60,481 bases of DNA from a virus (IMGVR_UViG_3300038462_000024:1-60481), one strand, 5' to 3'. Counted from the stretch's first letter, positions 14,253 through 30,719 are shown. Numbers and translations: made by a program. The notes: generated by a model not told the origin, from the letters alone.

Positions 14253-14264
14253 ACGGGTGTCAAG

Positions 14265-14573: not shown

Positions 14574-14983
14574 AAACATTGGCGGACGTAAATCGGGCTA
14601 ACCAGGCGTTTTGGAACCGGGGGACGCAGGACGCACAGAAACACGAGCCTGCGGGTTCGTCAAAGGGCGGTCAGTTTACTTCGGGTGGAGGTTCGGCGGG
14701 CGGCAAGGCTCCTGACCCTAAGCGCGCTAAACCCGGTAAAGGCGGCAGCAAGCCTAATTTTGGCCATGTCTCTTCCATGGGAAAGAATGCCGAAAAGGTG
14801 AAGCCGTTTAACTCCCGCGCTGACGCTGAAGCTGAAGCTGAAGCGGTCCGATTAGGGGGGCAACACGGTAAAGAATACCAGTTTACTGTTAGTCAGGGAT
14901 ATGCCCCGGATGACCCCCGCAAACCGGAATACCATGTTAATGTCAAGGTAGAGGGCAAGAATAGGGGAATGTTGTTTAAATGA
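14570..14983 (+). CDS. Putative capsid-internal protein with scaffold-like N-terminal helix
   Basis: MKTLADVNRANQAFW resembles the scaffold C-terminus; TQD/AQKHEPAGSSKGGQF motif variant. Confidence 0.7.
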   Translation: MKTLADVNRANQAFWNRGTQDAQKHEPAGSSKGGQFTSGGGSAGGKAPDPKRAKPGKGGSKPNFGHVSSMGKNAEKVKPFNSRADAEAEAEAVRLGGQHGKEYQFTVSQGYAPDDPRKPEYHVNVKVEGKNRGMLFK

Positions 14984-15366
14984 CCCGCAAGGCCCGGAAT
15001 TATCACGTCCATATTCACGTGAACGATGAGATAACCGGGTTTCTTACCGGCAACTCGGATAAGCGCCAGCAACCGGGCGGGCCGAATTTCGAATTGTACC
15101 GATCGTCAACTGGTATTCAGGACCAACAGGAATTGGATAAAACGGCAGACCTGATCGCGGCACAGGCCAGGGCTGAGCGGGCTAAGGCGGTCCGGGTGAA
15201 GGCGTCGGGCGCGGTGGAGTGGCAGGGGAGCCGGGGGTTGACTTCGGTTAATCTGTACCACGGGCGGCGCGCGGGGGTAACGAAAGAGGACTTGGAATAC
15301 ATGGTGCTCAAGCTGAAAGGCTTGGGGCTGGAAGTCCGGATATCGACGGCCACAGATAGGAAATAA
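14980..15366 (+). CDS. Putative capsid-internal protein with HVHIH motif
   Basis: N-terminal YHVHIHVND shared with the scaffold and other head-region proteins. Confidence 0.7.
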   Translation: MTRKARNYHVHIHVNDEITGFLTGNSDKRQQPGGPNFELYRSSTGIQDQQELDKTADLIAAQARAERAKAVRVKASGAVEWQGSRGLTSVNLYHGRRAGVTKEDLEYMVLKLKGLGLEVRISTATDRK

Positions 15367-15368
15367 CC

Positions 15369-15740
15369 ATGCACCAGGACACTGATTTGGTCAAGGCCAT
15401 CAAGGATTTAACCCGAGCCGTTTTGGCTCAAACTTCGGAGGAGAGACTACTCATGACTGCAATGGAAGACCTTCAGGCGGCGCTCGTCGCCACCCAGACC
15501 TCGCTTACCAATATCCAGACGGCCATCGGCGGTGCGACTGCCGCTATTACCAACGCTTCGGCGGACATTACGGCCCTGGCCGCCCAGCTTGCGGCGGCGC
15601 TTGCCGCTGGCGATCCGGTGGCTGTTGAGGCGGCGGCTCAGGCGTTTAATACGGCGGCGGCAAGCCTTGACTTGGCGGCTACGGGGCTTAATGACGCGGT
15701 TACGGCAGCCAATATCCCAGTTCCCGCAGCGGCTGCTTAA
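15369..15740 (+). CDS. Ala-rich coiled-coil protein
   Basis: Heptad Leu/Ala pattern; start at 15369 or 15453. Confidence 0.7.
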   Translation: MHQDTDLVKAIKDLTRAVLAQTSEERLLMTAMEDLQAALVATQTSLTNIQTAIGGATAAITNASADITALAAQLAAALAAGDPVAVEAAAQAFNTAAASLDLAATGLNDAVTAANIPVPAAAA

Positions 15741-15746
15741 ACCTCA

Positions 15747-18059
15747 ATGTCCCGGATGTTTCACGTCCACATTCAAGACCGGGCTCGCCGCCGTCGCGAT
15801 GAGTGGGGAGGGTTTCCGGACCCTTCTCCTCGGGCGGTTGCGGCGGCCCGCGAGATGTTTCCGGAAGATTCCCGGTTTGGGGAATCGGCTATTAACGATC
15901 CGGACGACGTGCTGCGGCGGATTAAGGCCGCAAGCGGAGTATCGGTGCTCCGGCAAGTGCTGTCTGAGTTGGAGACTGCCCGCAAAGAAGATGTGATTGA
16001 GATCGCGCGGCGGTTTACGGGGCGGAAAGCGGTTAGCACCAAAAAGGCAATCGACGATATTTGGACGACGTGGTACACGCGGCGCGGTACGGCGGATGCG
16101 GAGTGGCGGGAAGAGGAACACCCACGCAAAGATGATGGAAAGTTTGGTACGGGGGGTGACGGAGGCGTGCCCATCAGACAAGCTAGGCCACGAAAAGAGG
16201 CGGGGCTTGCGGTAACAGGGTTTCCCGTTGTTGATCTTCCCGAGAATACGCTGTCTAAGATAAAACAGGAGGCATGGGAACGGGCGGTTAAGGGCAAAGG
16301 GCCAAAACCCGATAAAATCAGAGTTCCGCTTTCTGAGTTAGTTTCATTTCAAGACGTGGTTGAAACCAGCAAAGTGAAAGCTATAGCTAAAAAATATAAA
16401 AGTGAAGAGGCTTTGTCGGAAATTGGGGACAGGCCCCGAGTTATTAAACTTGGTAATAAATACGTGCTTACGGATGGCAACCATCGAGCTAATGTCGCGC
16501 TGCTAAATAAACACAAAGAATTAGAAGTTAATTACTATGGGGATTTGACAGAGTTAGTTAAGGGAAATTCTGTTCAGGATAAGGATTGGGAAGAGCAAAA
16601 ACACCCCCGTAAAGAGGATGGAAAATTTGCAAAAGGCGGCGGTTCGGGCAAGAAGGTCGATTTGATGGCTGAGGCCAAGAGCCTCGGAATCAAAGTTACC
16701 ACTAAGACTACGGTGGCTCAGTTGCTGGCTGCGTTGGCGGCGGCCAAGGGTCAACCAGAACCGGAAGTGAAACCTAAGAAGATTGTTCCGGTCAAAAAAG
16801 TTAAGGAGCCGACTACGCTGTCCGGATGGCATACGTTAGCTACCAATGCTAAGATTTGGGTCGGTTCCCATTGGACGGTTGGACAAATAATAGCGGAGAT
16901 TGAAGACCGTCGACAGGTGCGGTTAAAACAATTTGAGGCTATGGGAGATCCCGTTTCCCCAGGGCTATCTGACACGGCCTTAGCTAAAGAGTACCGCAAA
17001 TTAGAGACGGAGGTCTACAAAGCGGGGGTTAAGATTGGGGCCGAGGTAGGGTTCGGCACACTGCCTACGGAAAACCATAAGGCATATTTGGAAAAAAAGG
17101 AATTAAACGCTAAGGCGAAAGCGCTTGGTGTTCCAGAAAAGGAATTAAATAAACCGAAGTTTGCCCTTGAAAAGGCCCTGGCTAAGTTAGCTTTGCTTAA
17201 GGAGCTTGAAGCGCTTAGTTGGGAAAAACTGGTATTGTTGGCCTTGAGGGACGGGTTGACTCTTCAGGCAATAACCAAGAGCAAGAGCAAGAGCACCCAA
17301 GCAGGGCTTGCTAAGTGGTTGTCGAAAAACACTTCGCACACGGAAGTGGCGGCTGCGCTTGCTGGTCCCAGTCTGGCCGGGCCGGACTGGGAGGGGCCGT
17401 GGAGCCCTGAAGTAGCCACGCCTCAACAGAAGAAAGCCATATATCGGTACACTGGGTGGGGATTTGAAAAAGTTAACGGGGCACTGCGCGGAAAATCTCC
17501 CCCTTCAGCATTTGAGGTCAAAGCAACTAAGTATTTAGATCAAATTACCCGTAATTCTACTTTTTCGGGTGTGCTTTACCGGGGCGTGTCTGCTAACACT
17601 TTACAAAAGTTTAGGGAGTTGGGAGTGACTGCGCCGGGCAAGGCCATTACAGATGACGCGTTCATGAGCTTTTCTAAGAGCAAGAAATTCGCGGCGGAGT
17701 GGAAACAGGGGGCTGTAATTGAGATGGTCGGGGGAAAGGGGTGTGCGGACATCAGCAGCATATCCGTACACAAAACGGAAGAGGAGGTGCTAGTGGCGCG
17801 GGGAGCTAGGCTTCGGGTTAAAAGTTGGGATGAGGCAGCTAAGACGCTAAAAGTTGTACTAGAGGGCACATCTTACACAGCTAAAACAGGAAAAGACGCG
17901 GCCCCTGACCCCCTGGCTGAATTGGATGAGGTTATGTCCAAAAGCCATAAGTGGGACATAACCTCGGAACCCCACGTAGACGGGGCTAGTTCGTTGGTTG
18001 ACCGGTGGGCTGCGGATGATGATTTCGGGCTGGGCGTGGTATTGGACGACGAAGAGTAG
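15747..18059 (+). CDS. Polyvalent head-associated protein: ParB-like domain, helix-extension-helix-like repeats, C-terminal ADP-ribosyltransferase (VIP2/Alt-like)
   Basis: LTDGNHRA (ParB-like); YTG...VNGALRG, LYRGV, FMSFS, TEEEVL (R-S-ExE ART motifs); immediately upstream of MuF. Confidence 0.85.
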   Translation: MSRMFHVHIQDRARRRRDEWGGFPDPSPRAVAAAREMFPEDSRFGESAINDPDDVLRRIKAASGVSVLRQVLSELETARKEDVIEIARRFTGRKAVSTKKAIDDIWTTWYTRRGTADAEWREEEHPRKDDGKFGTGGDGGVPIRQARPRKEAGLAVTGFPVVDLPENTLSKIKQEAWERAVKGKGPKPDKIRVPLSELVSFQDVVETSKVKAIAKKYKSEEALSEIGDRPRVIKLGNKYVLTDGNHRANVALLNKHKELEVNYYGDLTELVKGNSVQDKDWEEQKHPRKEDGKFAKGGGSGKKVDLMAEAKSLGIKVTTKTTVAQLLAALAAAKGQPEPEVKPKKIVPVKKVKEPTTLSGWHTLATNAKIWVGSHWTVGQIIAEIEDRRQVRLKQFEAMGDPVSPGLSDTALAKEYRKLETEVYKAGVKIGAEVGFGTLPTENHKAYLEKKELNAKAKALGVPEKELNKPKFALEKALAKLALLKELEALSWEKLVLLALRDGLTLQAITKSKSKSTQAGLAKWLSKNTSHTEVAAALAGPSLAGPDWEGPWSPEVATPQQKKAIYRYTGWGFEKVNGALRGKSPPSAFEVKATKYLDQITRNSTFSGVLYRGVSANTLQKFRELGVTAPGKAITDDAFMSFSKSKKFAAEWKQGAVIEMVGGKGCADISSISVHKTEEEVLVARGARLRVKSWDEAAKTLKVVLEGTSYTAKTGKDAAPDPLAELDEVMSKSHKWDITSEPHVDGASSLVDRWAADDDFGLGVVLDDEE

Positions 18060-18809
18060 TTGCCCCCTCACGCCGCCGTCTCTGAACAACGCCGAATTTG
18101 GGCGCACGTTAAGCGCGCTGAACGGTCATACTCCCGCAATCTGCGTTCGATTTCCCGGCAAATAGGCGTTATCACCAAAGAGCTTGCTCCTCACCCCGAT
18201 TCGCTGGAGGCTATGCTCCGGGAATACGCCCAGGTGCTGGTGCCTTGGGCGTATTCCGTGGCCTCCCGGATGCTTTCGGAGGCCCTGCGCCGGGATGACG
18301 CGGCCTGGAACCGGCTGTCGAAAACCATGAGCCGCGCGCTGGCGGAGGAAATCCGGGGTGCGCCAATCGGGGGCCGGTTACGCGAGTTGCAGCAGCAACA
18401 GGTTACTTTGATTACTTCGCTTCCCTTGGAAGCGGCCGAACGGGTGCACGCGCTGGCCCTAGAGATTCGGGTTTCCACGGCGGGCCGGGCTAAGGAGCTG
18501 GCCGCCGCGATCCTCGCCTCGGGCGACGTGTCGAAAGCTAGGGCCAACTGCATTGCTCGGACGGAAACGGCGCGGGTAGCCTCTAACTTCACTCAAGCCC
18601 GCGCGGAATTTGTGGGGTCTGAGGGGTACATTTGGCGCACTGCGGGGGATTTGGACGTCCGGAAGCTGCACCAAAAATTGAACGGGCAGTTTGTCCGATG
18701 GGACGCGCCACCAGTAGCGGGGAAGTCCAAAGCGGGGGAAATCCGGGCACACGCGGGGTGTTTTCCTAATTGCCGCTGCTATGCGGAACCGGTGGTGCCG
18801 GAAGTGTAA
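18060..18809 (+). CDS. MuF/SPP1 gp7-family head morphogenesis protein (no C-terminal extension)
   Basis: IARTETAR...YIWRTAGDLDVRKLH...HAGCFPNCRC. Confidence 0.93.
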   Translation: MPPHAAVSEQRRIWAHVKRAERSYSRNLRSISRQIGVITKELAPHPDSLEAMLREYAQVLVPWAYSVASRMLSEALRRDDAAWNRLSKTMSRALAEEIRGAPIGGRLRELQQQQVTLITSLPLEAAERVHALALEIRVSTAGRAKELAAAILASGDVSKARANCIARTETARVASNFTQARAEFVGSEGYIWRTAGDLDVRKLHQKLNGQFVRWDAPPVAGKSKAGEIRAHAGCFPNCRCYAEPVVPEV

Positions 18810-18819
18810 AATAGCCGCT

Positions 18820-19119
18820 ATGGAGGGCGTGCAGGTGTGTAGTTTCCTTACAGGCATTATGTGCCGGGTGTGCCTAAAAACCAAAACCTGTCGTGCCGTG
18901 GCCCCTCAATTGTCGCCGTCTTTGCCAGGAGTTGGTGCGCTTTTTGGGGGCGGGCTGTCGTTTGACCACGCTTGCCGGGTTGCCACTATGTTAGACGGGC
19001 TCGGCGTAACCGGTGAGGATTTGGAACTAGTCCAGGACCAGCTTCCGGAATACCATTGGGAGTGGAACGAGGAGGATGGGTTCCGGCCCTACCCGCATTC
19101 TTATCGCCGCAGGCACTGA
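18820..19119 (+). CDS. Hypothetical protein
   Basis: ORF filling the gap between MuF and the adaptor gene; start uncertain. Confidence 0.45.
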   Translation: MEGVQVCSFLTGIMCRVCLKTKTCRAVAPQLSPSLPGVGALFGGGLSFDHACRVATMLDGLGVTGEDLELVQDQLPEYHWEWNEEDGFRPYPHSYRRRH

Positions 19120-19131
19120 GGTACAATCAGG

Positions 19132-19530
19132 ATGGATATTGACGTCACGGATGTACTCTTGGACCCAATGATTGCGGGAGAACGCTTTACGGTCCTGCGC
19201 CGCCGGGAGCTGGTTAATAACCTAGGTGTGGCTGAGTGGCAATGGGAGACGTTTCCTAACATTATCGGTTCGGTTACGCCAACCGGGGATCAGAGCTTAG
19301 TCCGGGATGAGGGGTTCCAGGCGCAGGCTAAGACTATTTTGGTAATTACTGCCTTCAAGCTTCGGGGCGAGTCTAAGGACGAGGCCCGCCGCAATTACCA
19401 GCCGGACGTTGTGGTTTGGAATGAAAACTATTACATGGTTCGCACCGTGGATGACTATTCGCGGTATGGAGCGGGCTTTGTGCAAGCTGAATGTAGTTCA
19501 ACTGACTTGGTGGATCAGGCACCGCGCTAA
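19132..19530 (+). CDS. Head-tail adaptor/closure protein
   Basis: DVTDVLLDP...PDVVVW...DYSRYGAGFVQAEC pattern of this head module; context. Confidence 0.7.
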   Translation: MDIDVTDVLLDPMIAGERFTVLRRRELVNNLGVAEWQWETFPNIIGSVTPTGDQSLVRDEGFQAQAKTILVITAFKLRGESKDEARRNYQPDVVVWNENYYMVRTVDDYSRYGAGFVQAECSSTDLVDQAPR

Positions 19531-19545
19531 CCGGAGAAACATACA

Positions 19546-20538
19546 ATGATGACTGGTCTTGCGAATTTGAAATACGGGCGTTCTGGCCAGTTGTTGCCGA
19601 TGTCTCGCCCGGCTCGCCCCCTTTACCCTTTCCGTTGCCGGGCTAGGGCGCGCGACACGGGGCTTTCCGACTATTCGGCGAAGGCCCAGCTTAATTGGCT
19701 CACGGGCCAGGTAGCAATGCCCGCACTTCCCAACGTGTGGTTGTCGCTGTACACGGCGGTGGGAGCCGACGACAACACGGGGTTTACTGAGGTAACGGGC
19801 GGGGCATACGCCCGGCAGCAAGTCGCGGGCAATGTAGCCACTAACGGCACCACGGCTAACGGCAACGCCACGCTGCATTTCGCTTCGGTCCCGGCGTGGA
19901 TCGTGGCGGGCATGAGCATTTACGACACCACTGGGTCCGGCCTCATTCCAGCGGCCACCACGGTGTCTACGACGACCGGCACCACGGTAGTTATGAGTGC
20001 CAATGCTACCGGCGCGGGCGTCGGTTCGGGCGATAACATTGTGTTCTCGGCGTTCGCGGCCCCAACGGGGACCGGCCCCTCTCAGGCCACCAATTCGGCG
20101 GCGACGATTACGTTTCCTCAGGCAACGGCTAACTGGGGCACGGCCATCGCGTTTGGGCTTACCGATGCGAGCACCTCGGGCGACCTTCTTTCCTGGGACT
20201 ACTTGGGCAATCACGCATGGTTGCCCGCGTATGTTACGGCGGCATCCCCCGCCGTGCTCGATATTAAGGCACACGGGTACTCAATCGCGGACACCGTGGC
20301 ATTCTCGACGGAGTACGGCGGTACGGCCCCCTCGTTCTCGCAGTCGAATTTTACCGGGCTGCTCGCGGTCATCGCCACCAACTTTGCGACTGACGTTATC
20401 TCGGTGTCGAATGCCAGCACCAATGTTAACACGTCCACTAGCGGTTCGGGTATGGTGAGGAAGGTGCTGCAGCAGTCGATTCCAATCAACACGCAAGCGT
20501 CGTTCGCGGCCTCGTCGCTGGTAGTGGTATCGGCGTAA
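19546..20538 (+). CDS. Fibre/appendage protein with basic N-terminal propeptide
   Basis: WLSLYTA...TEVTGGAYARQ...ITFPQATANWG fibre-type motif; leader ending RCRARARD. Confidence 0.75.
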   Translation: MMTGLANLKYGRSGQLLPMSRPARPLYPFRCRARARDTGLSDYSAKAQLNWLTGQVAMPALPNVWLSLYTAVGADDNTGFTEVTGGAYARQQVAGNVATNGTTANGNATLHFASVPAWIVAGMSIYDTTGSGLIPAATTVSTTTGTTVVMSANATGAGVGSGDNIVFSAFAAPTGTGPSQATNSAATITFPQATANWGTAIAFGLTDASTSGDLLSWDYLGNHAWLPAYVTAASPAVLDIKAHGYSIADTVAFSTEYGGTAPSFSQSNFTGLLAVIATNFATDVISVSNASTNVNTSTSGSGMVRKVLQQSIPINTQASFAASSLVVVSA

Positions 20539-20587
20539 AACTTGAAGGGGCGCGAATGAAACATAGCTTGTTCGCGCCCGGCACATC

Positions 20588-23389
20588 ATGAGCACAACCG
20601 AGTTTAAGACCGCGACCGGGGCTGGATCGTTCCCGGTTCCGGTTGGCGTTACGTCCCTTACGCTCAAGGGCATTGGCGGCGGCGGCAACGGTTACGCCTC
20701 AACTGGCGGCGGCGGCGGTGGCGCGGGTGCGGCTTACGCGGCATCAACGATATCGGTCACAACCGCGCAGACCCTTTATTACAATATCGGCATTGGTGGA
20801 GGCACGTCCACAACAGGGCAGACCTGGGCTCAAATCGGGACCAATGCGGCTCCGTCGTCGAATACGGTTGGGATTTTAGCCCCTTACGGGCCGACAGCGA
20901 CAAGCACTACTGGTGCTGCCGCCGTCACGACCGGAGGAATAGGCACTACCGTTAACTACGGCGGCAGTGGGGGGAACACGACGGGCGGCGGCGGCGGCGC
21001 GGGTGGCCCAAATGGTTCTGGCGGCAAGGGCGGCAACAGCACGCAAGGTGCTGGTGGCGGTGGCGGCAATGGTGGGGGCACGGCGGGAGCTGATGGCTCC
21101 GGAGCCCCCGGCGGCGCGGGCGGCAATAATTCCGCCGGTAGCGGTAGCGGTGCGGGCGGAACGTCCGGTGGTCATAATGGCTCCGCCGGAACCAGCGGGG
21201 GTGGTGGCGGCGGCAGCTATTATACGGACGGCGCGGGTGGGCCAGGCAGCACTGGGACAGAATTCGACGCCAGCCATGGCTCAGGTAGTGGCGGCGGCGG
21301 GGGCTGGAAAGCGGCGGGGGGCAATGGCGGTCTTTACGGTGGTGGCGGGTCAGCCTCCGGCGGTTCGGGTGGAACCGCCGGAACTGGTGCTCAGGGCCTC
21401 CTTGTTATCACCTATGCCGCTACGGTTAGTTTGTCCGCTAAATCGAGTTCTGCGTCCACTTCCCGGCCTTCGGGGGTTTTTGCCGTGCGGCCTTCTGCTA
21501 AATCAAGGTTTGCATCTGCCCCCCGGTCCGCAGGGTCTTTTGCCCTTCGGTTATCGGCCAAAGAGCGGAGCGGGGTGTCGGTTAAGGTCCGGCCGAACTT
21601 AACCGTCCGGGGGGCGGGGGCAATTAAAGTCATCGGGGGGGATACAAGGATTGCGCCGCAGTTGCGGGCGGCGCTGGCTGCAAAAACCCTGTTTAGGGGG
21701 GCAATAACCAAAAACGTTCCGAACTTAACCATTATAAGTATGGCTAGGTCCTTTGTGGTGGCGTTTGCCCGCGCGGTGTCTAATTCCTCCACACAGGGAG
21801 TTGCGTTGTATGGTATAACCCGGTCAACGGCTCAAACTCGGGTTGGACCTCCGCAATTGGCTGCGGGAATGTTGGCTCGGGTTCGATCAAAAATGGGAGT
21901 TTGGTCCGCCCCCTCGTGGACCATACGGGTTTCGGCCAAGAGTGCTGCGGTGTCATTGGCACATGCGAACCCCAACTTGCTTATACAAGTTATTGCTTTA
22001 TTTGGCGGGTTCCGGGCGGCGGCTTGGCTTAAGTCTGGGCCGCAACTCTCCGCGAATTTGTTGGGTCAGTTGCGGTCGAAAGCCAGCGGCGCGATGGGTT
22101 TACCGAGCCTACCCTTACATATCCGAGCAGCCGTGTGGATGCGGAGCTGGGCAGGGGCGGCGGCCCAGCAATCGGGAGGACTTGGGGCGCGAATAACGGC
22201 TAGGGTTCGGGGTGTTTCGCACCCAACATTAGCCGTTTCAGTGGCCGGAACGAACCACACTAGGGGGGCCGTTACCGGCTGGCTATATTTAGGAGCCCCG
22301 TTACGGGCAATACTCCAAATGAACATAACGTTAGGCGCGGCGTTTGCTCGGATAATTAGTCCCTCCGCCCGGCTGGGGGAGGCGGTGCGCGGCGGGGCGC
22401 GTAGTTTCGCGGCCTCATCTCTATCGGGTTACGGGAGGCTCGCGATGTGGCTTAGACCCCGCCTCAGATACCCGATTCGGGTTACGGGGGTTTCGCGTAT
22501 CCGATTTGCGGAAACGGGCACTCCTCGGTTGCAATTGACTATTACCAAGGTGCGGGTTACTTCCCAAGTGTCGGGCGGGGCGGGAATCCGGGGACTAACA
22601 CGATTGGGGGGCCGAACCTTATCGCTCATCCGGGGCCGAGAGCGGCCTGCGTTAACCGTGGGGCTTTTTGGCCGGAGTGAAGCCCAAACCTTGGCCCGTA
22701 CTCGGTGGCGGCTGGCCGCCCGGTTGTTGGGGCGGGCGCGATCCGGGGCGGCGGCCTCGGGCAGCTTTTTGGGCAAGACGGCGCTCACCGCCGCTGCCCG
22801 GCTGGCGCAATTCTCGTCGATCAAACCCCGGCTGGCGCTCCGAAACCTGGCGGGCTCCTTGGCCTCAAGGGTGGCCGGGCGCACCCGGAACGTGGCCTCG
22901 TTATTGTCAGGCGTTTCGCGGCTGCGGTCTGGTTTCCGGGGGCAAGCATACTTGTTCAAACTGGGTCAGTTGGCTCAGGGGTTTTCGTTTTTCGGTCCGC
23001 ATCGCCGTCGCACTATTTCTATGGTAAATGGAGCAGTAACCTTGTCAGCTTGTTTGGACTTGTTGCCCCCCATTGACGCGGGAGTAGAGCGGGAATGGGT
23101 AACGTTTGATTACGGCCGCGTGTTGGTTGCCGGGGTAACTATTGTTTCGGCAACGGTTACATGCGTCGTGGAATCGGGGTCCGGCACGGACCTTACGCCT
23201 GGCGCTCGGTTGGTTGGGTCCCCGGTGGTTATTGCTTCGCCTCGGACCGGCGCGACCCGCGCGGCAATCGCGCAGTTGGTTGGCAATTGTCAGGCGGATG
23301 TGGTTTACCAGTTTCAATGTGTGGCCGCCACCACGGACGGGCAACTCCTGTCCCTGTGGGGCCGCCTCAGTTGTATAGCTCCGGAATAG
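20588..23389 (+). CDS. Glycine-rich fibre protein with long Arg/Ala-rich segment and C-terminal adaptor-like domain
   Basis: Gly-rich domain (~aa 1-280), low-complexity basic middle, C-terminal EWVTFDYG...TIVSATV domain. Confidence 0.75.
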   Translation: MSTTEFKTATGAGSFPVPVGVTSLTLKGIGGGGNGYASTGGGGGGAGAAYAASTISVTTAQTLYYNIGIGGGTSTTGQTWAQIGTNAAPSSNTVGILAPYGPTATSTTGAAAVTTGGIGTTVNYGGSGGNTTGGGGGAGGPNGSGGKGGNSTQGAGGGGGNGGGTAGADGSGAPGGAGGNNSAGSGSGAGGTSGGHNGSAGTSGGGGGGSYYTDGAGGPGSTGTEFDASHGSGSGGGGGWKAAGGNGGLYGGGGSASGGSGGTAGTGAQGLLVITYAATVSLSAKSSSASTSRPSGVFAVRPSAKSRFASAPRSAGSFALRLSAKERSGVSVKVRPNLTVRGAGAIKVIGGDTRIAPQLRAALAAKTLFRGAITKNVPNLTIISMARSFVVAFARAVSNSSTQGVALYGITRSTAQTRVGPPQLAAGMLARVRSKMGVWSAPSWTIRVSAKSAAVSLAHANPNLLIQVIALFGGFRAAAWLKSGPQLSANLLGQLRSKASGAMGLPSLPLHIRAAVWMRSWAGAAAQQSGGLGARITARVRGVSHPTLAVSVAGTNHTRGAVTGWLYLGAPLRAILQMNITLGAAFARIISPSARLGEAVRGGARSFAASSLSGYGRLAMWLRPRLRYPIRVTGVSRIRFAETGTPRLQLTITKVRVTSQVSGGAGIRGLTRLGGRTLSLIRGRERPALTVGLFGRSEAQTLARTRWRLAARLLGRARSGAAASGSFLGKTALTAAARLAQFSSIKPRLALRNLAGSLASRVAGRTRNVASLLSGVSRLRSGFRGQAYLFKLGQLAQGFSFFGPHRRRTISMVNGAVTLSACLDLLPPIDAGVEREWVTFDYGRVLVAGVTIVSATVTCVVESGSGTDLTPGARLVGSPVVIASPRTGATRAAIAQLVGNCQADVVYQFQCVAATTDGQLLSLWGRLSCIAPE

Positions 23390-23406
23390 CTGGGGCGGAT
23401 AGAGGT

Positions 23407-23493
23407 TGCCGGGCCTTGGGCTCAAGCCCGGCAGGGGCCGGTTGTTAGATCCGTATACCTCCATGCGGATAATCTACTGGGGCAACCGGCCCC
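23407..23493 (+). other. Structured intergenic element (two hairpins)
   Basis: TGCCGGG/CCCGGCA stem; GGGGCCGGTTG/CAACCGGCCCC outer stem enclosing ATCCGTAT/ATGCGGAT. Confidence 0.5.
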
Positions 23494-23512
23494 ACAACTA
23501 AAGGGAATTGAT

Positions 23513-24175
23513 ATGTTCCGATGGCTATCTGTTTTTGCGGTGGTAGCAACGCTCCTGTGGGGGGTTCCCTTCACCGCAACGTACACGGGTTTAGTTGCGA
23601 CATACGCAGCGAGTGAAGGTGCGGCGGCTTACGGGTCAACGGCCTACAGCAACACGGCGCTGAGTAACACTCCGGCGGTGGTCAAGGCAACTCCGGGGCT
23701 GCTTACTTCGTTCAACTGCTATAACTCCAACGCTACGGTCGAATATCTACAATTTGCGGATATTTTGGTGCAAGCCGTGGCCGTCACGGGCACGACCAAC
23801 GGCACGACCTCGACCAGCAGCAACGTTCTGCATTTCGCGGCGACCCCTTCGGGCGTAGCTGCGGGCCAGGATATTGTTGATACGTCAACGGGTTCGGCCA
23901 TCGCGGCGGGAACCACGGTCGTATCCTTTACGGCAACAACTGTTACCATGTCGGCCAATGCGGCGGGGGGCGGTGTTGGGGGCACGGACGGCATCACGTT
24001 TTTTACCCCGCCCAAGATGACGGTTGCGTTGACCCCCTCGACGGTCAGCAATAGCGCGTGGCCGGTTGGCGTTGGTTTTCCGTTCAATGCTATCAGCGTC
24101 GCGGCGACCTCCGGGGTAACGACGTATAGTGGCGCACCCAGCTCCGCGCTGGCTTGCACCTTTACCTATAATTAA
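23513..24175 (+). CDS. Signal-peptide-bearing Thr/Ser-rich protein sharing a ~70-aa module with 19546-20538
   Basis: Hydrophobic N-terminus; TTNGTT...LHFA...AGTTVVS...TVTMSANA module. Confidence 0.75.
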   Translation: MFRWLSVFAVVATLLWGVPFTATYTGLVATYAASEGAAAYGSTAYSNTALSNTPAVVKATPGLLTSFNCYNSNATVEYLQFADILVQAVAVTGTTNGTTSTSSNVLHFAATPSGVAAGQDIVDTSTGSAIAAGTTVVSFTATTVTMSANAAGGGVGGTDGITFFTPPKMTVALTPSTVSNSAWPVGVGFPFNAISVAATSGVTTYSGAPSSALACTFTYN

Positions 24176-24186
24176 GAGCGCAGGTA

Positions 24187-25908
<1,722 letters not shown>

Positions 25909-25932
25909 TCCTGGGAGCGGCTGGAGAAAATA

Positions 25933-26580
25933 ATGGAAAATACCTTCAAGTATGACAGCCGGTCGGCTCTGGCCGCTCCGGCAGTTCTAAGGCCCATTCA
26001 GCGGGGGCGTCACCGCACCTTGGATGTGGCCTTCAATTATCGGATGGGTGCGGGCTTCGCGGGCATGGTCACCCGCACCCATCCCGTCGCATTGGAGCCC
26101 AGTGTTCTGGACGCCACCAATCCGCCCACAACGTATGGGCAGGCCGTGGTGGTTAATACGGCGGCGAACTCCGTTCGAGTTGTTCTGTCCACCGATACCG
26201 CAATCACGACCATTTACGGCATCACGGTCCGGCCGTACCCGTTCCAGGCGTCGTCAAGCACGGGGGCATACGGCGCGGAGGGGTTTGCCACTTCGGCCTC
26301 GCTCCCCGTGCTGCAGGCGGGCCAGGTGGTGGATATCCTGCGCCAGGGGTACATCATGGTCCCCTGCGTAGGCTCGCCCACTAAGGGCGGAGAGGTTTTC
26401 CTCTGGATCGGCGCTACGGGCGGCGGGCATACCCATGGCTGCTTCGAGGCGGCCACATCTGGGGACGCCAACACCGTTGCGTTGAGTGGCTACCCTGGCG
26501 GGGCAATCCCGGCCACGGTGTCGTTTAACGGGCCGCTCGATACGACTTCGGGGCTGGTCGAGCTGGCGTTCAACATCTAA
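25933..26580 (+). CDS. Capsid decoration/cement protein
   Basis: Between scaffold and MCP; FNYRMGAGFAG, YGITVRPYP, ILRQGYI; ends ELAFNI. Confidence 0.8.
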   Translation: MENTFKYDSRSALAAPAVLRPIQRGRHRTLDVAFNYRMGAGFAGMVTRTHPVALEPSVLDATNPPTTYGQAVVVNTAANSVRVVLSTDTAITTIYGITVRPYPFQASSSTGAYGAEGFATSASLPVLQAGQVVDILRQGYIMVPCVGSPTKGGEVFLWIGATGGGHTHGCFEAATSGDANTVALSGYPGGAIPATVSFNGPLDTTSGLVELAFNI

Positions 26581-26599
26581 CAGAGGAAATTTGAAGCTA

Positions 26600-27763
26600 A
26601 TGCTTAATATTCAGCCTTCATTCCCTGCTCCGGCCATTATCCGGTTTCCAGGAGCACTTCGGGGCAGGGCGCGCGCCCTGGATAATCTAACAGGCTATGG
26701 GTGGGCGGGCAACCAGCGTACCCATGATGCCCTAGGCAATGCCATGGGTGCCCGGCTGGGGGGCAACTTCCGGACCAACGATGGTCGCACGGTGGATTCC
26801 ACGGGCGCATTCCTCGTCGGTGAGCTTGAACGGCTCGACATGACGCTGCACAACCCGCTGGTGGCGGTGACTTGGGGCCGCGACATCCAACTCCGCGACG
26901 ACGTTACCATCGCGGATGAAGTGTCGAGCTTCACGCTGTCCACATACGGTTCGCCGGGTTCGCTGGGCACAGGCAGTTCCATCGGCAACGGCAAAGCCTG
27001 GATCGGCAAGACCACTAACCAGATTACGGGCGTTGGCGTCGATATCGCCAAGATCCCGCACCCGCTGCGGCCTTGGGGCCTGGAAATCCGGTTCACCATT
27101 CTCGAACTGGAATCGGCGGCCAAACTCGGCCGCCCGGTCGATGCCCAGAAATACGCGGGCATGCAGCTCAAGCACCAAATGGACATCGACGAGCAGGTGT
27201 ACATCGGCGATACCGTCACGGGCGATACCGGCCTCATCAACAACGCGCTGGTGACTTCCCGGTTTAATCTTCCGGCGGGCGTCTCGGGCTCCACGGCTTG
27301 GGCATTCAAGACCCCGGACGAGATCCTGAACGATGTCAACTACGTGTTGACCACGACTTGGGCCAATTCCGGTTATGCGGTCATCCCCAGCCGCCTGTTG
27401 CTGCCCCCGACGCAATTCGGCTACATCAGCACGCAAAAAGTCTCCCTGGCAGGCAATGTGTCCATTCTGAAGTATATCCAGGAAAACAACCTGCTCACCA
27501 CATCCGGCCAGGGCAAACTTGAGATTTACCCCCTCAAGTGGCTGGTCGGCGCGGGCTTAGGTGGCACTATCGGCACGGCGGGCACCGTTGACCGCATGGT
27601 GGCATACACCAACGAAAAGGACCGCGTGCGCTACCCGATGACGCTCCTACAGCGCACGCCGATTCAATACGACTCGATTTACCACAAAACCACTTATTTC
27701 TGCCGCATGGGCGTTGTCGAGTGCGTCTACCCTGAAACGCTGTCGTATGGGGATGGGTTGTAG
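26600..27763 (+). CDS. Major capsid protein (DUF2184-like)
   Basis: TGAFLVGELERLD, TWGRDI, KTPDEILND, LLLPP..F, DRMVAY; GAGG RBS before ATG 26600. Confidence 0.93.
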   Translation: MLNIQPSFPAPAIIRFPGALRGRARALDNLTGYGWAGNQRTHDALGNAMGARLGGNFRTNDGRTVDSTGAFLVGELERLDMTLHNPLVAVTWGRDIQLRDDVTIADEVSSFTLSTYGSPGSLGTGSSIGNGKAWIGKTTNQITGVGVDIAKIPHPLRPWGLEIRFTILELESAAKLGRPVDAQKYAGMQLKHQMDIDEQVYIGDTVTGDTGLINNALVTSRFNLPAGVSGSTAWAFKTPDEILNDVNYVLTTTWANSGYAVIPSRLLLPPTQFGYISTQKVSLAGNVSILKYIQENNLLTTSGQGKLEIYPLKWLVGAGLGGTIGTAGTVDRMVAYTNEKDRVRYPMTLLQRTPIQYDSIYHKTTYFCRMGVVECVYPETLSYGDGL

Positions 27764-27793
27764 CCGTAGCAGACTATAACTAAATATAAAGAC

Positions 27794-27821
27794 AGGGACG
27801 GCGGGAGGCCCCGCCGTCCCT
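27794..27821 (+). terminator. Strong hairpin after MCP (stabiliser or terminator)
   Basis: Perfect 12-bp stem AGGGACGGCGGG-AGGC-CCCGCCGTCCCT; no U-tract. Confidence 0.55.
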
Positions 27822-27854
27822 CAGCCCCAGTAATCTTTGGAGGAATGTGTACCA

Positions 27855-28829
27855 ATGCCAGTTAGATCGTTCACCGGGCCGGACGGCCAGACGTTTAAAT
27901 TAGGCAGAAAAATCCCAACATCTCGCGCCCCGGTCCTGCGCTTAAAGAACTATATGACTACTGTGTTACCTCAGCTCCCCGCTGCTTATGATTACACCCC
28001 GATGGCCCAGGCGGCCCTTGGGCAGATGTACAATAACGATTCGCTGGGCGATTGCGTGATTGCCGCGATGGAGCACGTACAGGGCGTATTTACCGGAAAC
28101 GCCTCGGGCAGCCCGCTGCAGTTTTCGGCCAATCAGACCATTGGTATGTACTCGGCGGCGTGCGGGTATGTTCCCGGCCAGCCCAGGACGGACGCCGGTT
28201 GCGATATCCAGCAGGTGTTTTCTTATTGGGGAGATAAGGGGTCGCCCCAGGGATCTGGCCACAAGATCGCCGGTTGGTTGGCTGTGGATCCCACTTCGGT
28301 TACGGAAGTCCAAACGGCGATATGGCTGTTTGAAAATGTCTTTTTCGGGATTTGTATGCCCGATGCTTGGGTCAACCCTCTCCCCCGCCAATCGGGTTTC
28401 ATTTGGGATGCGGCGGGAAGCCCGGACCCCTACAACGGCCACTGCTTCCCCGGAGTGGCGTACGACTCGGCTGGAGTCGTTATTTCCACTTGGGCAATGC
28501 TGGGCCGGATTACATACAGGGCAATAGCCCAGTACGCGGCGGACAGGGCTCAGGGCGAGTTGTACACCGTCATCAGCCAGGATCAGTTGAATGCCGCCAG
28601 CGGGATGGCTCCCAATGGGTTCAATTGGGACCAACTGACGGCAGATTTCACAGCTCTAGGCGGCGGTGTGACGCCGCCCACGCCGCCCACGCCGCCCACG
28701 CCGCCCGCGACTCTGCTCCAGCAACTGGCCACCGACGTGCAAAAGCTCGTGTCGGACGCGCAGACGGACGGCGCGGCGGTTGCCCTGGACTTGGCGGCAA
28801 TTCTCGCGGCGGGCACGCCGAAATCCTAA
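27855..28829 (+). CDS. Papain-like cysteine peptidase
   Basis: NDSLGDCVIAA (Cys), GHCF (His), ISTW; PTP linker and helical tail; GGAGG RBS. Confidence 0.7.
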   Translation: MPVRSFTGPDGQTFKLGRKIPTSRAPVLRLKNYMTTVLPQLPAAYDYTPMAQAALGQMYNNDSLGDCVIAAMEHVQGVFTGNASGSPLQFSANQTIGMYSAACGYVPGQPRTDAGCDIQQVFSYWGDKGSPQGSGHKIAGWLAVDPTSVTEVQTAIWLFENVFFGICMPDAWVNPLPRQSGFIWDAAGSPDPYNGHCFPGVAYDSAGVVISTWAMLGRITYRAIAQYAADRAQGELYTVISQDQLNAASGMAPNGFNWDQLTADFTALGGGVTPPTPPTPPTPPATLLQQLATDVQKLVSDAQTDGAAVALDLAAILAAGTPKS

Positions 28830-28844
28830 CCACGGAGGTTTGAC

Positions 28845-29216
28845 TTGGATATCAATAGACCTGCGCCGGGCGCTACGCGCTGGCAGACCCCCGGCTCCGC
28901 ACCGTTCGGGATGCTTTCCCCGGAAACGGCTAAACTAAGGGAGGACGAACCAACTTTTACCATGGTTTTCCCTCAGGATGTGATTGTCACCCGTGATGAT
29001 ATGTCCAAGGTCCATTTCCGGATGGGAATCCAGGAAGTTCCCGAACACATCAAGGACCACTGGTATTTGCGGGGCGCGGGAGTAATTATGTACACCAAGC
29101 CCGAACCGGTTAAAGTTCCCGCACCTGCGGCGGCCGTGGCGCAGCCGGTTCCTCTGCCCGCTTCCTCGGCCCCGGTTAAAGCGCCGCCCCGCGCGTCGCA
29201 GAAATCCGGAGGTTAA
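28845..29216 (+). CDS. Small conserved head-region protein (STY1053-like)
   Basis: FRMGIQEVPEHIKDHWY motif; Pro/Ala tail. Confidence 0.65.
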   Translation: MDINRPAPGATRWQTPGSAPFGMLSPETAKLREDEPTFTMVFPQDVIVTRDDMSKVHFRMGIQEVPEHIKDHWYLRGAGVIMYTKPEPVKVPAPAAAVAQPVPLPASSAPVKAPPRASQKSGG

Positions 29217-29221
29217 GGGCT

Positions 29222-29560
29222 ATGCCGCTGACTAAAAAGGGGGAAAAGATCATGTCTCATATGAAGCAGGAATACGGGCCGAAGAAGGGGGAAGGCGTGT
29301 TCTACGCCTCCGCCAACAATGGCACGATTTCGGGTGTGCACCCCAAGGATTCGGACGATCCGAACGCGGTGCAGTTAATGGGGCCATTTAACCCCAAGTC
29401 GGCGGCCAAGCCCTCAATCGACCCGCCCCGGTTTCATGATAACATGGTGCCGGGCACGGGCGAGTTGGCGGGGGAGATTGTCAAGGTCCTCCCCGACAAT
29501 ATCTCGGCAGCGTCTATCAACGAGGCTAATAAGAAGTTGTGGCGGTCAGCCGGAGGCTAA
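29222..29560 (+). CDS. Small basic protein with scaffold-like C-terminal helix
   Basis: MPLTKKGEKIM...VFYASANNG N-terminal domain; SAASINEANKKLW C-terminus. Confidence 0.7.
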   Translation: MPLTKKGEKIMSHMKQEYGPKKGEGVFYASANNGTISGVHPKDSDDPNAVQLMGPFNPKSAAKPSIDPPRFHDNMVPGTGELAGEIVKVLPDNISAASINEANKKLWRSAGG

Positions 29561-29563
29561 CCC

Positions 29564-30064
29564 ATGATTACCCCCCAGTCTTTCCGCATCGATTACCCCG
29601 AATTTAGGGACCAAGGACGGTACCCGGATTCGGGCATTCAGCTTTTCGTCGCGGTCGCGGGGATGCTCTTCAATAAGCGGCTTTGGGGGGAACCTTCGGT
29701 TGCGGCGGCCAACCCGCCCACTACCATGTACGACATTGGGGTGGAGCTGTTCATAGCGCACAACTTGGCTTTGGAATTCCAACAGATTAAGGCGTCAGAA
29801 AATGGGGCCGTGCCCGGCCTCACCACTGGCGTTATTTCTAGTAAGAGCGTCGGCAGCGTTTCAATCAGTTACGATACGGCGTCAGGCGTCGAGGCCGATG
29901 CGGGCCATTGGAACTTGACCACCTATGGCATCCGGTTTATCCGGCTTAGCAAGCAGTTCGGGGCCGCGCCGTTTATCGCGGCGGGCAACATGGTTCCCAA
30001 TGACTGGTCAACAACCTCCACCCCCGCCTGGCCAGGGCCGCCGTTCTTTGGGTTTTCTAATTAG
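29564..30064 (+). CDS. Head-tail connector (DUF4054-like)
   Basis: FRIDYPEF...YPD...LFIAHNL...SVGSVSISYD...WNLTTYG. Confidence 0.85.
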   Translation: MITPQSFRIDYPEFRDQGRYPDSGIQLFVAVAGMLFNKRLWGEPSVAAANPPTTMYDIGVELFIAHNLALEFQQIKASENGAVPGLTTGVISSKSVGSVSISYDTASGVEADAGHWNLTTYGIRFIRLSKQFGAAPFIAAGNMVPNDWSTTSTPAWPGPPFFGFSN

Positions 30065-30074
30065 AGGCTGTAAG

Positions 30075-30719
30075 ATGGCTATACATATCCACATACATAC
30101 GGGGGATGCCTGGGAAGAGGAGAAACACCCCCGCAGAAAAGACGGAAAGTTTGGGGCGGGGGCAGGCGGCGTAGCTAAAACACCCAAAGCCGCCTCATCT
30201 AAACAAGCCCTTCTTCCTAGTGACCATAAAGCAACCGCCCCCCAGATCAAACGAGCGCTGGCTAAACTTAAGCCATCACCTGATGAGGACGCGGATTACA
30301 ACAGCCCTCTTCGCCGTGTTCCGGATGAGATTCCGGCCAGAGCGAGGGAATATGAAGACGAAGAGTACGAGGAGGAAGACGAAGATGAGCCCTATCGTAT
30401 CTCTCAAGAAATGGTCGAAGAGTTCCTAATTCCTAATTTGAAAGGAAAATATAGGAAACTGGGGGTGGAAATTGACCCGGCAACTGTTTTTTGTTGGCAG
30501 TCCGAACTGTGGAAAACCCCGCTTGAGATATATATGAAAAACCCCAACGAAGACACCGGCGGGGGCACGACGCGGCGACCTGTGGTAACTAAGTTGCACG
30601 GGATACCTGTTGTGCAAGACGGAAATCACAGGGTGGTGGCGGCGCTTCTTTCGGGCCGCAAAATAAAAGTGGATTATTATGACTTGGATAAGGCCAAGAA
30701 AGACGGGGTTGAGTGGTAA
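30075..30719 (+). CDS. ParB-like domain protein with HIHIH and WxExKHPR motifs
   Basis: MAIHIHIHTGDAWEEEKHPRRKDGKF; PVV...QDGNHRVVAA; GAGG RBS. Confidence 0.8.
   Translation: MAIHIHIHTGDAWEEEKHPRRKDGKFGAGAGGVAKTPKAASSKQALLPSDHKATAPQIKRALAKLKPSPDEDADYNSPLRRVPDEIPARAREYEDEEYEEEDEDEPYRISQEMVEEFLIPNLKGKYRKLGVEIDPATVFCWQSELWKTPLEIYMKNPNEDTGGGTTRRPVVTKLHGIPVVQDGNHRVVAALLSGRKIKVDYYDLDKAKKDGVEW

Follow-up and report, generated by a model that had tools for sequence, protein, structure and literature searches.

The data support the alternating histidine motif HxHxH as a shared, selected feature that links a phage scaffold gene with head-module proteins. The motif is non-random and conserved at the protein level, stands strictly N-terminally in diverse head-module proteins, is followed by an Asp site and co-occurs with a copy in the scaffold. 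Its carriers are mostly uncultured myophages with a scaffold fused to a prohead protease of gp21 fold (DUF2213). The best explanation is a short, modular and cleavable leader for capsid targeting, which would dock on the corresponding strand of the scaffold as a functional analogue of the T4 CTS. We give this reading a probability of about 0.55. Literature searches yielded no description of an HxHxH leader or scaffold element.

Histidine motifs in the head module

The window, the whole stretch of DNA that was analysed, is a complete myophage contig of 60,481 bases. The original prediction had located four HxHxH peptides in it. All four were found in place, each within a real plus-strand ORF (Table 1). 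A six-frame count over the whole window detected H[VILA]H[VILA][HQ] exactly four times, at these four sites. In 200 dinucleotide-preserving shuffles, the motif occurred 0.355 times on average and at most twice, and 0 of 200 reached 4. The amino acid composition of the 24 head and tail CDSs (7,181 residues) predicts 0.011 occurrences in total and 0.0004 within the 12 N-terminal residues; three near-N-terminal motifs were observed. The recurrence is confirmed as real and far beyond chance. In the three head-module proteins, the motif lies 2–12 residues from the protein's own start. The start codon of tagged protein 3 follows a GAGG at a distance of about 9 nt and comes after the stop of the preceding gene.

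The predicted identity of 16 of 17 bases between the 17-mers at 15004 and 24814 was reproduced. The flanks of the two 17-mers are unrelated, so the identity is a codon-level coincidence of one peptide; a DNA duplication is ruled out as its source. Codons vary among the four sites (CAC/CAT; ATT/ATC/ATA; GTC/GTT).

Tagged protein 1 has only one relative, P0122 (84% identity), which kept the leader. Tagged protein 2 contains two HPRKxDGKF cassettes, a DGNHR module and a C-terminal ADP-ribosyltransferase (Pfam ADPrib_exo_Tox E 2.4e-12, ART E 6.8e-6; PHROG Alt-like ART E 2e-4). The DGNHR module is also present at the C-terminus of tagged protein 3, which had no family match in Pfam or PHROG. A search of 1.84 billion representatives retrieved 66 distant matches to this protein, 26 with leader and cassette at their own N-terminus. 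Giant polyvalent proteins contain 2–9 copies of the HPR-GKF cassette each; HxHxH was absent throughout all giant polyvalent matches to tagged protein 3. Among the window leaders, MAIHIHIH represents the canonical form M-(A/T/S)-x-H. The other two are atypical, one with the first His at residue 9 and one with two His only (HVHIQ). The MuF-like gene is a marker of a neighbourhood of head-internal or minor head proteins.

Table 1. Features of the histidine-motif system in the window
Feature	Position	Strand	Remarks
YHVHIHVND	15001-15027	+	residues 8-16 of ORF 14980-15366
FHVHIQD	15759-15779	+	residues 5-11 of ORF 15747-18059
GHVHIHVG (scaffold copy)	24811-24834	+	residues 209-216 of ORF 24187-25908
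IHIHIHTGD	30081-30107	+	residues 3-11 of ORF with ATG 30075
Tagged protein 1, 128 aa, no known family	14980..15366	+	leader MTRKARNYHVHIHVND at 14980-15027
Tagged protein 2, 770 aa, polyvalent-type	15747..18059	+	leader MSRMFHVHIQD at 15747-15779
Tagged protein 3, 214 aa	30075..30719	+	leader MAIHIHIHTGD at 30075-30107, then directly AWEEEKHPRRKDGKFG
HPR-GKF cassette	16095..16145	+	Asp just before: TAD, then AEWREEEHPRKDDGKF
Further HPR-GKF cassettes	starts 16578, 30105		
HPR-GKF cassette, degenerate copy	14624-14677		
MuF-like head morphogenesis protein	18060..18809	+	Pfam Phage_Mu_F E 4.5e-12; PHROG head morphogenesis E 6.6e-57
Prohead protease-scaffold fusion gene, 573 aa	24187..25908	+	Pfam DUF2213, PHROG 'head maturation protease' families
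DUF2213 domain, aa 16-176	24232..24714	+	fold of T4 gp21 and herpesvirus assemblin proteases
Highly charged middle region	24877..25473	+	12 copies of R-R-[HR]-[AS]-D, poly-Asp runs
Major capsid protein	26600..27763	+	Pfam Major_capside E 1e-72
R-T-H-D of capsid protein	26717-26728		just ahead of conserved core
R-T-N-D of capsid protein	26771-26782		just ahead of conserved core (core start TVDSTGAFLV)

The protease-scaffold fusion and its relatives

The gene originally predicted as scaffold retains this assignment for one part, but its DUF2213 match and gp21 fold identify it as a prohead protease-scaffold fusion. The protein matched Pfam PF09979 (DUF2213) with 158.1 bits (cut-off 22, E 2.6e-46) over residues 16-176. 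Residues 1-170 of the AF2 model have a pLDDT >90. For the protease domain, VIA-align identified T4 gp21 as best structural match (5jbl_A, Z 11.2, rmsd 2.8, 130 aligned residues), with herpes proteases at Z 6-8.7. Foldseek supported the gp21/assemblin fold with E 3e-3 to 5e-3 and a probability of 0.95-0.99. The candidate catalytic residues H80 and S135 are invariant in 32 sequences and 55 residues apart, as are H85 and S140 of gp21.

Scaffold characteristics are the position immediately before the cement and major capsid genes, a confident helical domain in the C-terminal part (AF2, residues 430-540) and a relative located inside a capsid. This relative is the only solved one, Pa193 gp24, annotated as 'scaffolding protein' (9b40_G, E 2.3e-5 over the DUF2213 domain). 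The linker 178-237 contains the scaffold motif and is disordered in the monomer model (pLDDT <50), which has no strand at the motif. The R-R-[HR]-[AS]-D copies in the charged region are candidate multiple protease sites for scaffold removal. At equivalent places, related scaffolds have KTGD, TRD or TKD.

The original prediction named absence of the motif from homologous scaffolds as a refutation; it passes this check, as 52 of 120 homologues carry the motif (48 with an earlier, narrower pattern). Each has exactly one element, always after the protease domain and 31-217 aa (median 58) past its end. The position is conserved, the flanking sequence is not. A forward survey covered 78 non-redundant loci. 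Of the 29 loci with scaffold motif, 12 had one or more tagged ORFs on the gene strand (20 ORFs), versus 2 of 49 loci without, both judged noise (Fisher p = 6.3e-5). The opposite-strand control had 2/29 and 5/49. For 17 of the 29 motif-bearing scaffolds, the 10-kb flanks had no tagged gene, so either the scaffold copy has its own function or cargo genes are located farther away.

The reverse survey started from a DNA pattern for M-A-x-HIHIH in IMG/VR, with 47 matches of which 41 were read as true gene starts. A DUF2213 gene was present in 17 of 25 records examined and in all five records that were at least 90% complete. The motif was present in 17/17 of these DUF2213 scaffolds. The scaffold gene and otherwise unrelated head-module proteins share the motif, as had been proposed, and N-terminal copies occur solely in genomes with the scaffold motif. 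The original interpretation is supported in part. On the protease tree, the scaffold motif clusters, with 11 changes versus 23.7 in shuffles. Supported branches provided only five independent contrasts: the tag followed the scaffold motif in a median of 2, ran counter to it in 0 and showed no difference in 3. A sign test on these five was not significant. The co-occurrence of tag and scaffold motif is not phylogenetically independent and is inflated by shared ancestry.

Proposed function of the leader

The 53 credible distinct leaders have the consensus M-(A/T/S)-x-H-I-H-(I/V)-H...(K/R)-T-(R/K)-D↓A (arrow, predicted cut), which is biased at the positions of M-A-x-HIHIH because about 30 leaders were obtained with a pattern fixing them. 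The first His is located at M-x-x-H in 45 leaders. An Asp follows within 7 residues of the His run in 47/53 leaders versus 1,680 of 5,903 control N-termini. Ala is at P1' in 28, Thr at P3 in 29 and Arg or Lys at P2 in 29 leaders. The tagged proteins have 64-914 aa, are mutually unrelated and mostly lack a PHROG family. Their genes all share the strand of the scaffold gene, at distances of 0.5-9 kb. Like a CTS, the motif is a short N-terminal leader on unrelated head-module proteins.

T-x-D sites recur at the N-termini of capsid proteins and throughout scaffolds (KTGD/TRD/TKD). In relatives of the window capsid protein, R-A-R-T-R-D takes the place of the two window sites; this R-T-R-D precedes the conserved core, and HxHxH is absent there. 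Therefore, the predicted cleavage would not depend on the His element, which must have another role. The T-x-D↓A after the N-terminal copies resembles a protease site, so the tag is probably removed.

We infer that the tagged proteins are packaged, that the leader physically binds the scaffold, that the two motif copies pair homotypically and that the protease cuts behind the Asp. While the prohead assembles, internal or ejected proteins would dock on the protease-scaffold with their leaders. In the most economical version, the leader and the one matching strand of the flexible scaffold linker would pair edge to edge. After shell closure, the protease would cut behind the Asp in (K/R)-T-(R/K)-D↓A past the leader. 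The cut would free the cargo inside the head, and small fragments would exit.

The tag may instead be an exosite docking signal for the protease domain, timing N-terminal processing or activation. The scaffold copy would then be an autoprocessing or autoinhibitory segment, and packaging would not be the purpose. This is unlikely, but it has several points in its favour: the scaffold motif lies in the same polypeptide as the protease, about 30-60 residues past the domain, the T-x-D↓A site comes after the motif in tagged proteins, and some scaffolds have a site right behind the motif, such as THVHVHSAGRTRD↓A in L017. Co-occurrence with the scaffold gene suits protease binding as well as binding to the linker strand. 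However, the same T-x-D sites in capsid proteins and motif-less scaffolds without HxHxH indicate that the predicted cleavage is independent of the element, and motif-less relatives have proteases of similar sequence. It is unlikely that a leader of 10-20 residues holds such diverse proteins inactive. If the protease is inside the prohead, binding to it is effectively packaging too. Docking on another prohead partner, for example the inner face of the capsid, the portal or MuF, is considered improbable. The scaffold copy would serve self-association only, and co-occurrence would reflect shared ancestry. Cargo peptides of encapsulins bind the shell and not a scaffold. The 17 motif-bearing scaffolds without tagged neighbour indicate that the scaffold copy can exist alone, and the independent contrasts are too few to prove coupling. 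Yet the scaffold motif is present in all 17 scaffolds of genomes found by their tag versus 29/78 in the forward survey, and the identical pattern of tag and scaffold copy would be left unexplained.

Even less probable is an element that is primarily a site for Zn, Ni or Cu in the proteins' own function after ejection, with no role in assembly. The alternating His on one face matches designed Zn-dependent peptides. M-(A/T/S)-x-H in 45/53 leaders would yield NH2-X-X-His after Met removal, a possible ATCUN site, and the small residue 2 agrees with the rules of methionine aminopeptidase. An ATCUN metal site is a free NH2-X-X-His N-terminus with His as third residue. But a common catalytic need is unlikely for mutually unrelated proteins, the conserved cleavage-like site suggests that the element is discarded, and this reading does not account for its confinement to genomes with the scaffold copy. 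It is hardly credible that the element is a signal at the nucleotide level close to start codons, for translation or in the mRNA, or a compositional accident. Three of the four window sites are within 40 nt of a start codon, and two share 16 of 17 bases. Against a signal, codons differ among sites, flanks are unrelated, the scaffold copy is 620 nt inside its own gene and the amino acid pattern is kept across loci of differing codon use. Against an accident, no shuffle reached four occurrences.

For the capsid-targeting leader, the synthetic peptides of the same pattern that form Zn-dependent beta-sheets make a beta-strand, its pairing and metal binding physically plausible. A metal-bridged 'histidine zipper' is a speculative and rather doubtful extension: the His rows of cargo leader and scaffold strand would co-ordinate Zn2+ (or Ni2+/Cu2+) in an intermolecular beta-sheet. 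Co-ordination of Ni2+/Cu2+ would be helped by the NH2-X-X-His end after Met removal. If true, the zipper would be a natural counterpart of designed catalytic-amyloid heptads and a reversible pH- and metal-sensitive latch for cargo loading, which the fused protease would afterwards remove. In that case, 8-12 residues together with the cognate strand would be a portable, orthogonal system for protein encapsidation.

Comparison with known systems

Polyvalent and MuF-linked multidomain effectors, including ART and ParB-like modules, are predicted to be packaged into the heads of phages with portal and terminase (Iyer et al. 2017, accessible part). The HPR-GKF cassette of the window proteins recurs in such giants. 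In contrast, the accessible part of that paper does not mention a His leader or a T-x-D site, and the giant matches are without HxHxH. Inside the capsid of Pseudomonas phage Pa193, part of the 'putative scaffolding protein' gp24 (PDB 9B40) was observed at the five-fold vertices; a protease domain or His motif is not described in the accessible part of the structure paper.

The synthetic peptides Ac-YVHVHVHV and Ac-IHIHIQI with HXH motif form beta-sheet amyloids that need Zn(II) for activity. Their alternating aliphatic/His heptad has near-copies in FHVHIQD and IHIHIHT of the window, and HVHIHV also alternates. The designed peptides are synthetic, isolated and fibril-forming.

Head and ejection proteins of the giant phages SPN3US (gp245) and phiKZ lose N-terminal propeptides, some of only 20-24 residues. 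Their prohead protease cuts at a short consensus with an acidic end, with multiple sites in scaffold-like regions. Unlike the window leaders with a His motif and a subsequent T-x-D site, these propeptides have no common targeting motif and are cut after Glu.

The diverse internal proteins of T4 have only the conserved CTS in common, which directs their encapsidation into the scaffolding core. T4 Alt is itself a packaged and injected protein. Mullaney & Black 1996 is reportedly a reference on the CTS of T4 head-internal proteins. The sequence class of the window leaders is entirely different, with alternating His and aliphatic residues. The predicted P1 is Asp instead of the Glu of gp21-type proteases, and the window protease is fused to the scaffold. 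The cognate tag copy in the scaffold suggests homotypic docking, a mechanism not known for T4. To our knowledge, the T4 CTS has no His pattern, and homology with the HxHxH leader is not claimed. The likeness is functional: as on IPI-III and Alt, a short N-terminal leader on unrelated head-internal proteins would target the scaffolding core and be coupled to processing by the prohead protease. The window protease has the gp21 fold, and one of the tagged proteins has an Alt-like ART.

The HxHxH peptides of the head module

The window spans one whole IMG/VR viral contig (CheckV completeness 100%), and the motif lies in its myophage head-neck-tail module. The portal gene is followed by genes for an M15 peptidase, several small ORFs, a 770-aa polyvalent-type protein with an ADP-ribosyltransferase (ART) at its C-terminus, a MuF protein, head-fibre-like proteins, a 573-aa 'scaffold', a cement protein, the major capsid protein, neck proteins and the sheath. 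Isolated phages gave no match at the DNA level to positions 14000-31000 (megablast). By scaffold protein, Burkholderia phage BgManors32 comes closest among isolates (39% identity).

Coordinates of features in the window
Feature	Position	Remark
Portal protein	11011-13158	InPase match at residues 571-669
HPR-GKF cassette	14624-14677	
Tagged protein 1	14980-15366	128 aa; motif at 15001-15027
Tagged protein 2	15747-18059	770 aa, polyvalent-type; motif at 15759-15779
HPR-GKF cassette	16095-16145	
DGNHR module	16473-16487	in tagged protein 2
HPR-GKF cassette	16578-16628	
ART-MuF junction	18057-18062	TAG at 18057-18059, TTG start at 18060
Fibre-like and 933-aa proteins	19546-23389	
'Scaffold'	24187-25908	573 aa; motif at 24811-24834
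Charge blocks of the 'scaffold'	24877-25473	middle third
ORF resembling BgManors32 gp69	28845-29216	
Tagged protein 3	30075-30719	214 aa; motif at 30081-30107
HPR-GKF cassette	30105-30152	
DGNHR module	30618-30632	in tagged protein 3

The four HVHIH-type peptides of the original prediction, one inside the scaffold and three at the N-termini of putative cargo (tagged proteins 1-3), were all found in place and within + strand ORFs. In a six-frame count, H[VILA]H[VILA][HQ] matched four times across the window, at exactly these sites. Dinucleotide-preserving shuffles (200) gave a mean of 0.355 matches and never more than two. The amino acid composition of the 24 head/tail CDSs (7,181 residues) predicts 0.011 matches, and 0.0004 for their first 12 residues, where three were observed. 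The claimed 16/17 DNA identity between positions 15004 and 24814 is real and confined to the codons of the motif. Unrelated flanks at these two sites and different codons at the other two point to selection on the peptide and to no recent DNA duplication.

Other features of the module were observed. Residues 571-669 of the portal protein form a C-terminal domain matching Pfam InPase 'Inorganic Pyrophosphatase' (PF18823, E 1.6e-17). The ORF with the ART ends at a TAG, and the MuF-like ORF starts at the next codon in the same frame; with read-through of the TAG, or before a recent split, the two would make up an ART-MuF fusion of about 1,020 aa. TAG closes six of the 24 listed genes and is thus not generally reassigned. 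Two further proteins are encoded between the head genes: one is Gp80 fibre-like (PF23140, E 1.4e-20), the other has 933 aa, a long N-terminal part rich in Gly and no family match; together they may form a head fibre or decoration.

A protease-scaffold with a matching His element

Scaffold residues 16-176 match Pfam DUF2213 (E 2.6e-46), and PHROGs labels the family 'head maturation protease'. The AlphaFold2 model, based on a 32-sequence alignment, was confident at residues 1-170 and in a helical C-terminal domain (430-540). Residues 178-237, which contain the HVHIH motif, and the charged middle were disordered in the monomer, leaving the motif without structure. Superposition of the N-terminal domain ranked gp21, the prohead protease of T4, first (Z 11.2, rmsd 2.8 Å, 130 residues), followed by herpesvirus assemblins (Z 6-8.7); Foldseek agreed weakly with this fold. 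His80 and Ser135 are invariant in the alignment, with a spacing like the catalytic H85/S140 of gp21. Among relatives by sequence, only Pa193 gp24 has a solved structure; it is a 'putative scaffolding protein' to its authors, who located part of it inside the capsid. The scaffold role assigned in the original prediction is retained, but the DUF2213 match and the gp21 fold correct a plain scaffold to a protease-scaffold fusion, modelled with the motif in a flexible linker just past the protease.

The middle third of the protein has extreme charge blocks: 12 R-R-[HR]-[AS]-D repeats between runs of up to 16 Asp. Its nearest relatives share this style (protein P0001 and loci L009, L011, L032 and L034); these four loci have neither a His element nor tagged genes.

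The motif recurs in homologous scaffolds. Exactly one alternating His/aliphatic element was present in 52 of the 120 best homologues (48 with a narrower earlier pattern), always downstream of the protease domain at a distance of 31-217 residues (median 58) and typically reading tHvHvH(l)(N/G/P)G. The remaining homologues have variants such as EIHNH or no element. An absence from homologous scaffolds, which would have counted against the original prediction, was thus not observed.

Co-occurrence with tagged genes was surveyed in both directions. The forward survey, an alignment-based IMG/VR scan that yielded 80 loci with flanks of at most 10 kb, comprised 78 loci after merging of identical scaffolds, window and BgManors32 included. 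The scaffold element was present in 29. Tagged ORFs on the same strand occurred in 12 of these 29 loci (20 ORFs) versus two of the 49 loci without the element (Fisher p = 6.3e-5), and the latter two look like noise. The opposite-strand control gave 2/29 and 5/49. Examples of tagged starts are MTIHIHIHKARD..., MSKHIHIHLPSKKTKD..., MATHIHVHLGRTRD... and MARHIHVHVHDGSFNESDHPRAENGKF...; every tagged gene of this survey is 0.5-9 kb away from the scaffold gene and shares its strand. The reverse survey searched IMG/VR with a DNA pattern for M-A-x-HIHIH and gave 47 matches in 43 stretches, 41 of which read as real gene starts, mostly with an upstream Shine-Dalgarno sequence, and six as chance. Twenty-five of 40 records were examined, the 15 omitted being contigs of at most 7.4 kb. 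A DUF2213 gene was present in 17 of the 25 and in all five that were at least 90% complete; all 17 scaffolds had the element. The link between scaffold and tagged proteins holds, and the original prediction is supported in part.

On a protease-domain tree, whose set included locus L083 where L086 belonged, the scaffold element was clustered (11 changes versus 23.7 in shuffles). Supported branches carried only five contrasts; the tag changed along with the element in a median of two, against it in none and stayed the same in three, and the sign test was not significant. As a property of lineages the association is strong; repeated co-evolution is not proven. Other alternating scaffold strands (e.g., VIEVK) revealed no parallel system, with 5-mer self-matches in 4/49 loci versus 61/482 cross-pair controls.

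In cultured phages, the only tagged protein found was gp73 of BgManors32 (L001 9187-9720), encoded just before the scaffold gene and starting with MARHLHIFIHTHD; the scaffold element of this phage reads QIHIHM. Gp73 matches internal parts of PHROG profiles 2,118 and 2,434 positions long (phrog_18222, E 4.7e-39) and so has the look of a single module from a giant polyvalent protein, encoded on its own. BgManors32 gp69 (MVKLHVHTPF) was rejected as a chance resemblance; it aligns by eye with an internal part of a window ORF (Table). The other half of the BgManors32 genome had no credible tag, nor did the whole genome of Bordetella phage vB_BaM-IFTN9, whose scaffold is motif-less. The tag-rich clade was also searched for cultured relatives; none is close, the best isolates being at most 45% identical.

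Leader anatomy and the putative Asp site

All loci together yielded 61 distinct leader candidates. Eight were dropped (five judged out-of-frame noise, one atypical, two internal starts of scaffold genes), leaving 53. The first His is placed as M-x-x-H in 45, and residue 2 is Ala, Thr or Ser in 49, the share of Ala being raised by the pattern used in the search. In 47 of 53 leaders, versus 1,680 of 5,903 control N-termini, the first Asp is found at most seven residues from the His run. Around this Asp, P4 is K/R/H in 41, P3 Thr in 29, P2 R/K in 29 and P1' Ala in 28 leaders. This gives the consensus M-(A/T/S)-x-H-I-H-(I/V)-H-φ-x(0-7)-(K/R)-T-(R/K)-D↓A, the arrow marking the putative cut. The tagged proteins are 64-914 aa long and have no mutual relationship; most of those scanned lack a PHROG family.

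Similar sites occur elsewhere in the head. The major capsid protein of relatives has R-A-R-T-R-D shortly past its start, before the conserved core T(F/Y)D..T(I/V)DSTGAFL, and that of the window has R-T-H-D and R-T-N-D at the same place. KTGD, TRD and TKD occur in many copies across scaffolds, and the scaffold of the window has its 12 R-R-[HR]-[AS]-D repeats. A spread of this kind, over capsid propeptide, scaffold and internal proteins, is what a prohead-protease site classically shows. Proteases of the gp21 type cleave after Glu; Asp at the cut site would be a related acidic specificity, and by this sequence pattern the tag is probably cleaved off.

HMMER matched tagged protein 3 to 66 others among 1.84 billion representatives. 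The leader is located at residue 4-6 in 26 of them, followed by D-x-W-E-E-x-K-HPR-xxx-G-K-F-G, with near-variants in two more. The other matches (132-2,407 residues) are mostly large polyvalent-type proteins with up to nine internal HPR-GKF cassettes; HxHxH occurs nowhere in them, which makes the leader a strictly N-terminal module. The cassette is an inter-domain element separate from it. A 5.8-billion-protein index yielded one homologue of tagged protein 1 and none of tagged protein 3.

The cassette, D-x(0-5)-W-x-E-x-x-H-P-R-x-x-x-G-K-F-G-x-G-G, always starts a few residues past an Asp. In 12 of 53 tagged proteins, versus 16 of 5,903 control N-termini, it comes after the His leader. Giant polyvalent proteins contain it two to nine times, as if it flagged borders between modules or N-termini newly made by cleavage. 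It matches part of phrog_30637. A DGNHR module of about 36 residues is also common to tagged proteins 2 and 3 (50% identity, E 5e-6). Pfam did not recognise it up to E 10, and a ParB-like label was dropped as no ParB family was among the matches. P0127, a distant match, has a similar DDGHHR module at its start. Short frames in L086 (4842-4964) and L069 (7953-8069) end in the motif, reading ...GKHIHIHLGKAK and ...RGIHIHFHKGV before the stop; these may represent tags at the C-terminus or short unattached 'decoy' peptides.

Proposed capsid targeting and its alternatives

HxHxH is best read as a cleavable capsid-targeting leader acting through the protease-scaffold, with a probability of about 0.55. 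Its likely receptor would be the matching strand, one per scaffold molecule. The synthetic peptides Ac-IHIHIQI and Ac-YVHVHVHV form beta-sheets by self-assembly and require Zn(II) to be active, which makes the predicted strand pairing, possibly metal-assisted, physically reasonable. Complex prediction of scaffold residues 1-260 (with alignment) and residues 1-45 of tagged protein 3 scored 0.00 in two control-less runs and is no evidence either way.

A function as protease exosite only is the foremost alternative, though an improbable one: the capsid protein carries the Asp site but no HxHxH, hence cleavage is not determined by the His element. Binding of the tag to another receptor in the prohead is less likely still, and a metal site serving the tagged proteins' own function is doubtful. 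A nucleotide-level signal or chance is least plausible of all, given shuffles that never exceeded two matches, differing codons and unrelated flanks.

A defined signal for head loading of proteins is known for few phages only, T4 above all. The HxHxH system is sequence-defined and widespread, and its probable receptor is legible in the genome as the matching scaffold strand; the recognition step is therefore directly testable with peptides and reporter fusions. The leader provides a simple marker for injected effectors, candidates for anti-defence or host takeover and nearly all ORFans, in metagenomic phages. The T-x-D↓A consensus would be the first working specificity for the DUF2213 protease family, and a leader of about 10 residues could tag foreign proteins for capsid packaging. 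Literature searches, at listing level and in one case over the best 25 of 111 entries, found no description of the motif in phages. The closest working model is the capsid targeting sequence of T4: diverse internal proteins share only this one conserved leader, which encapsidates them into the scaffolding core and can bring foreign proteins in.
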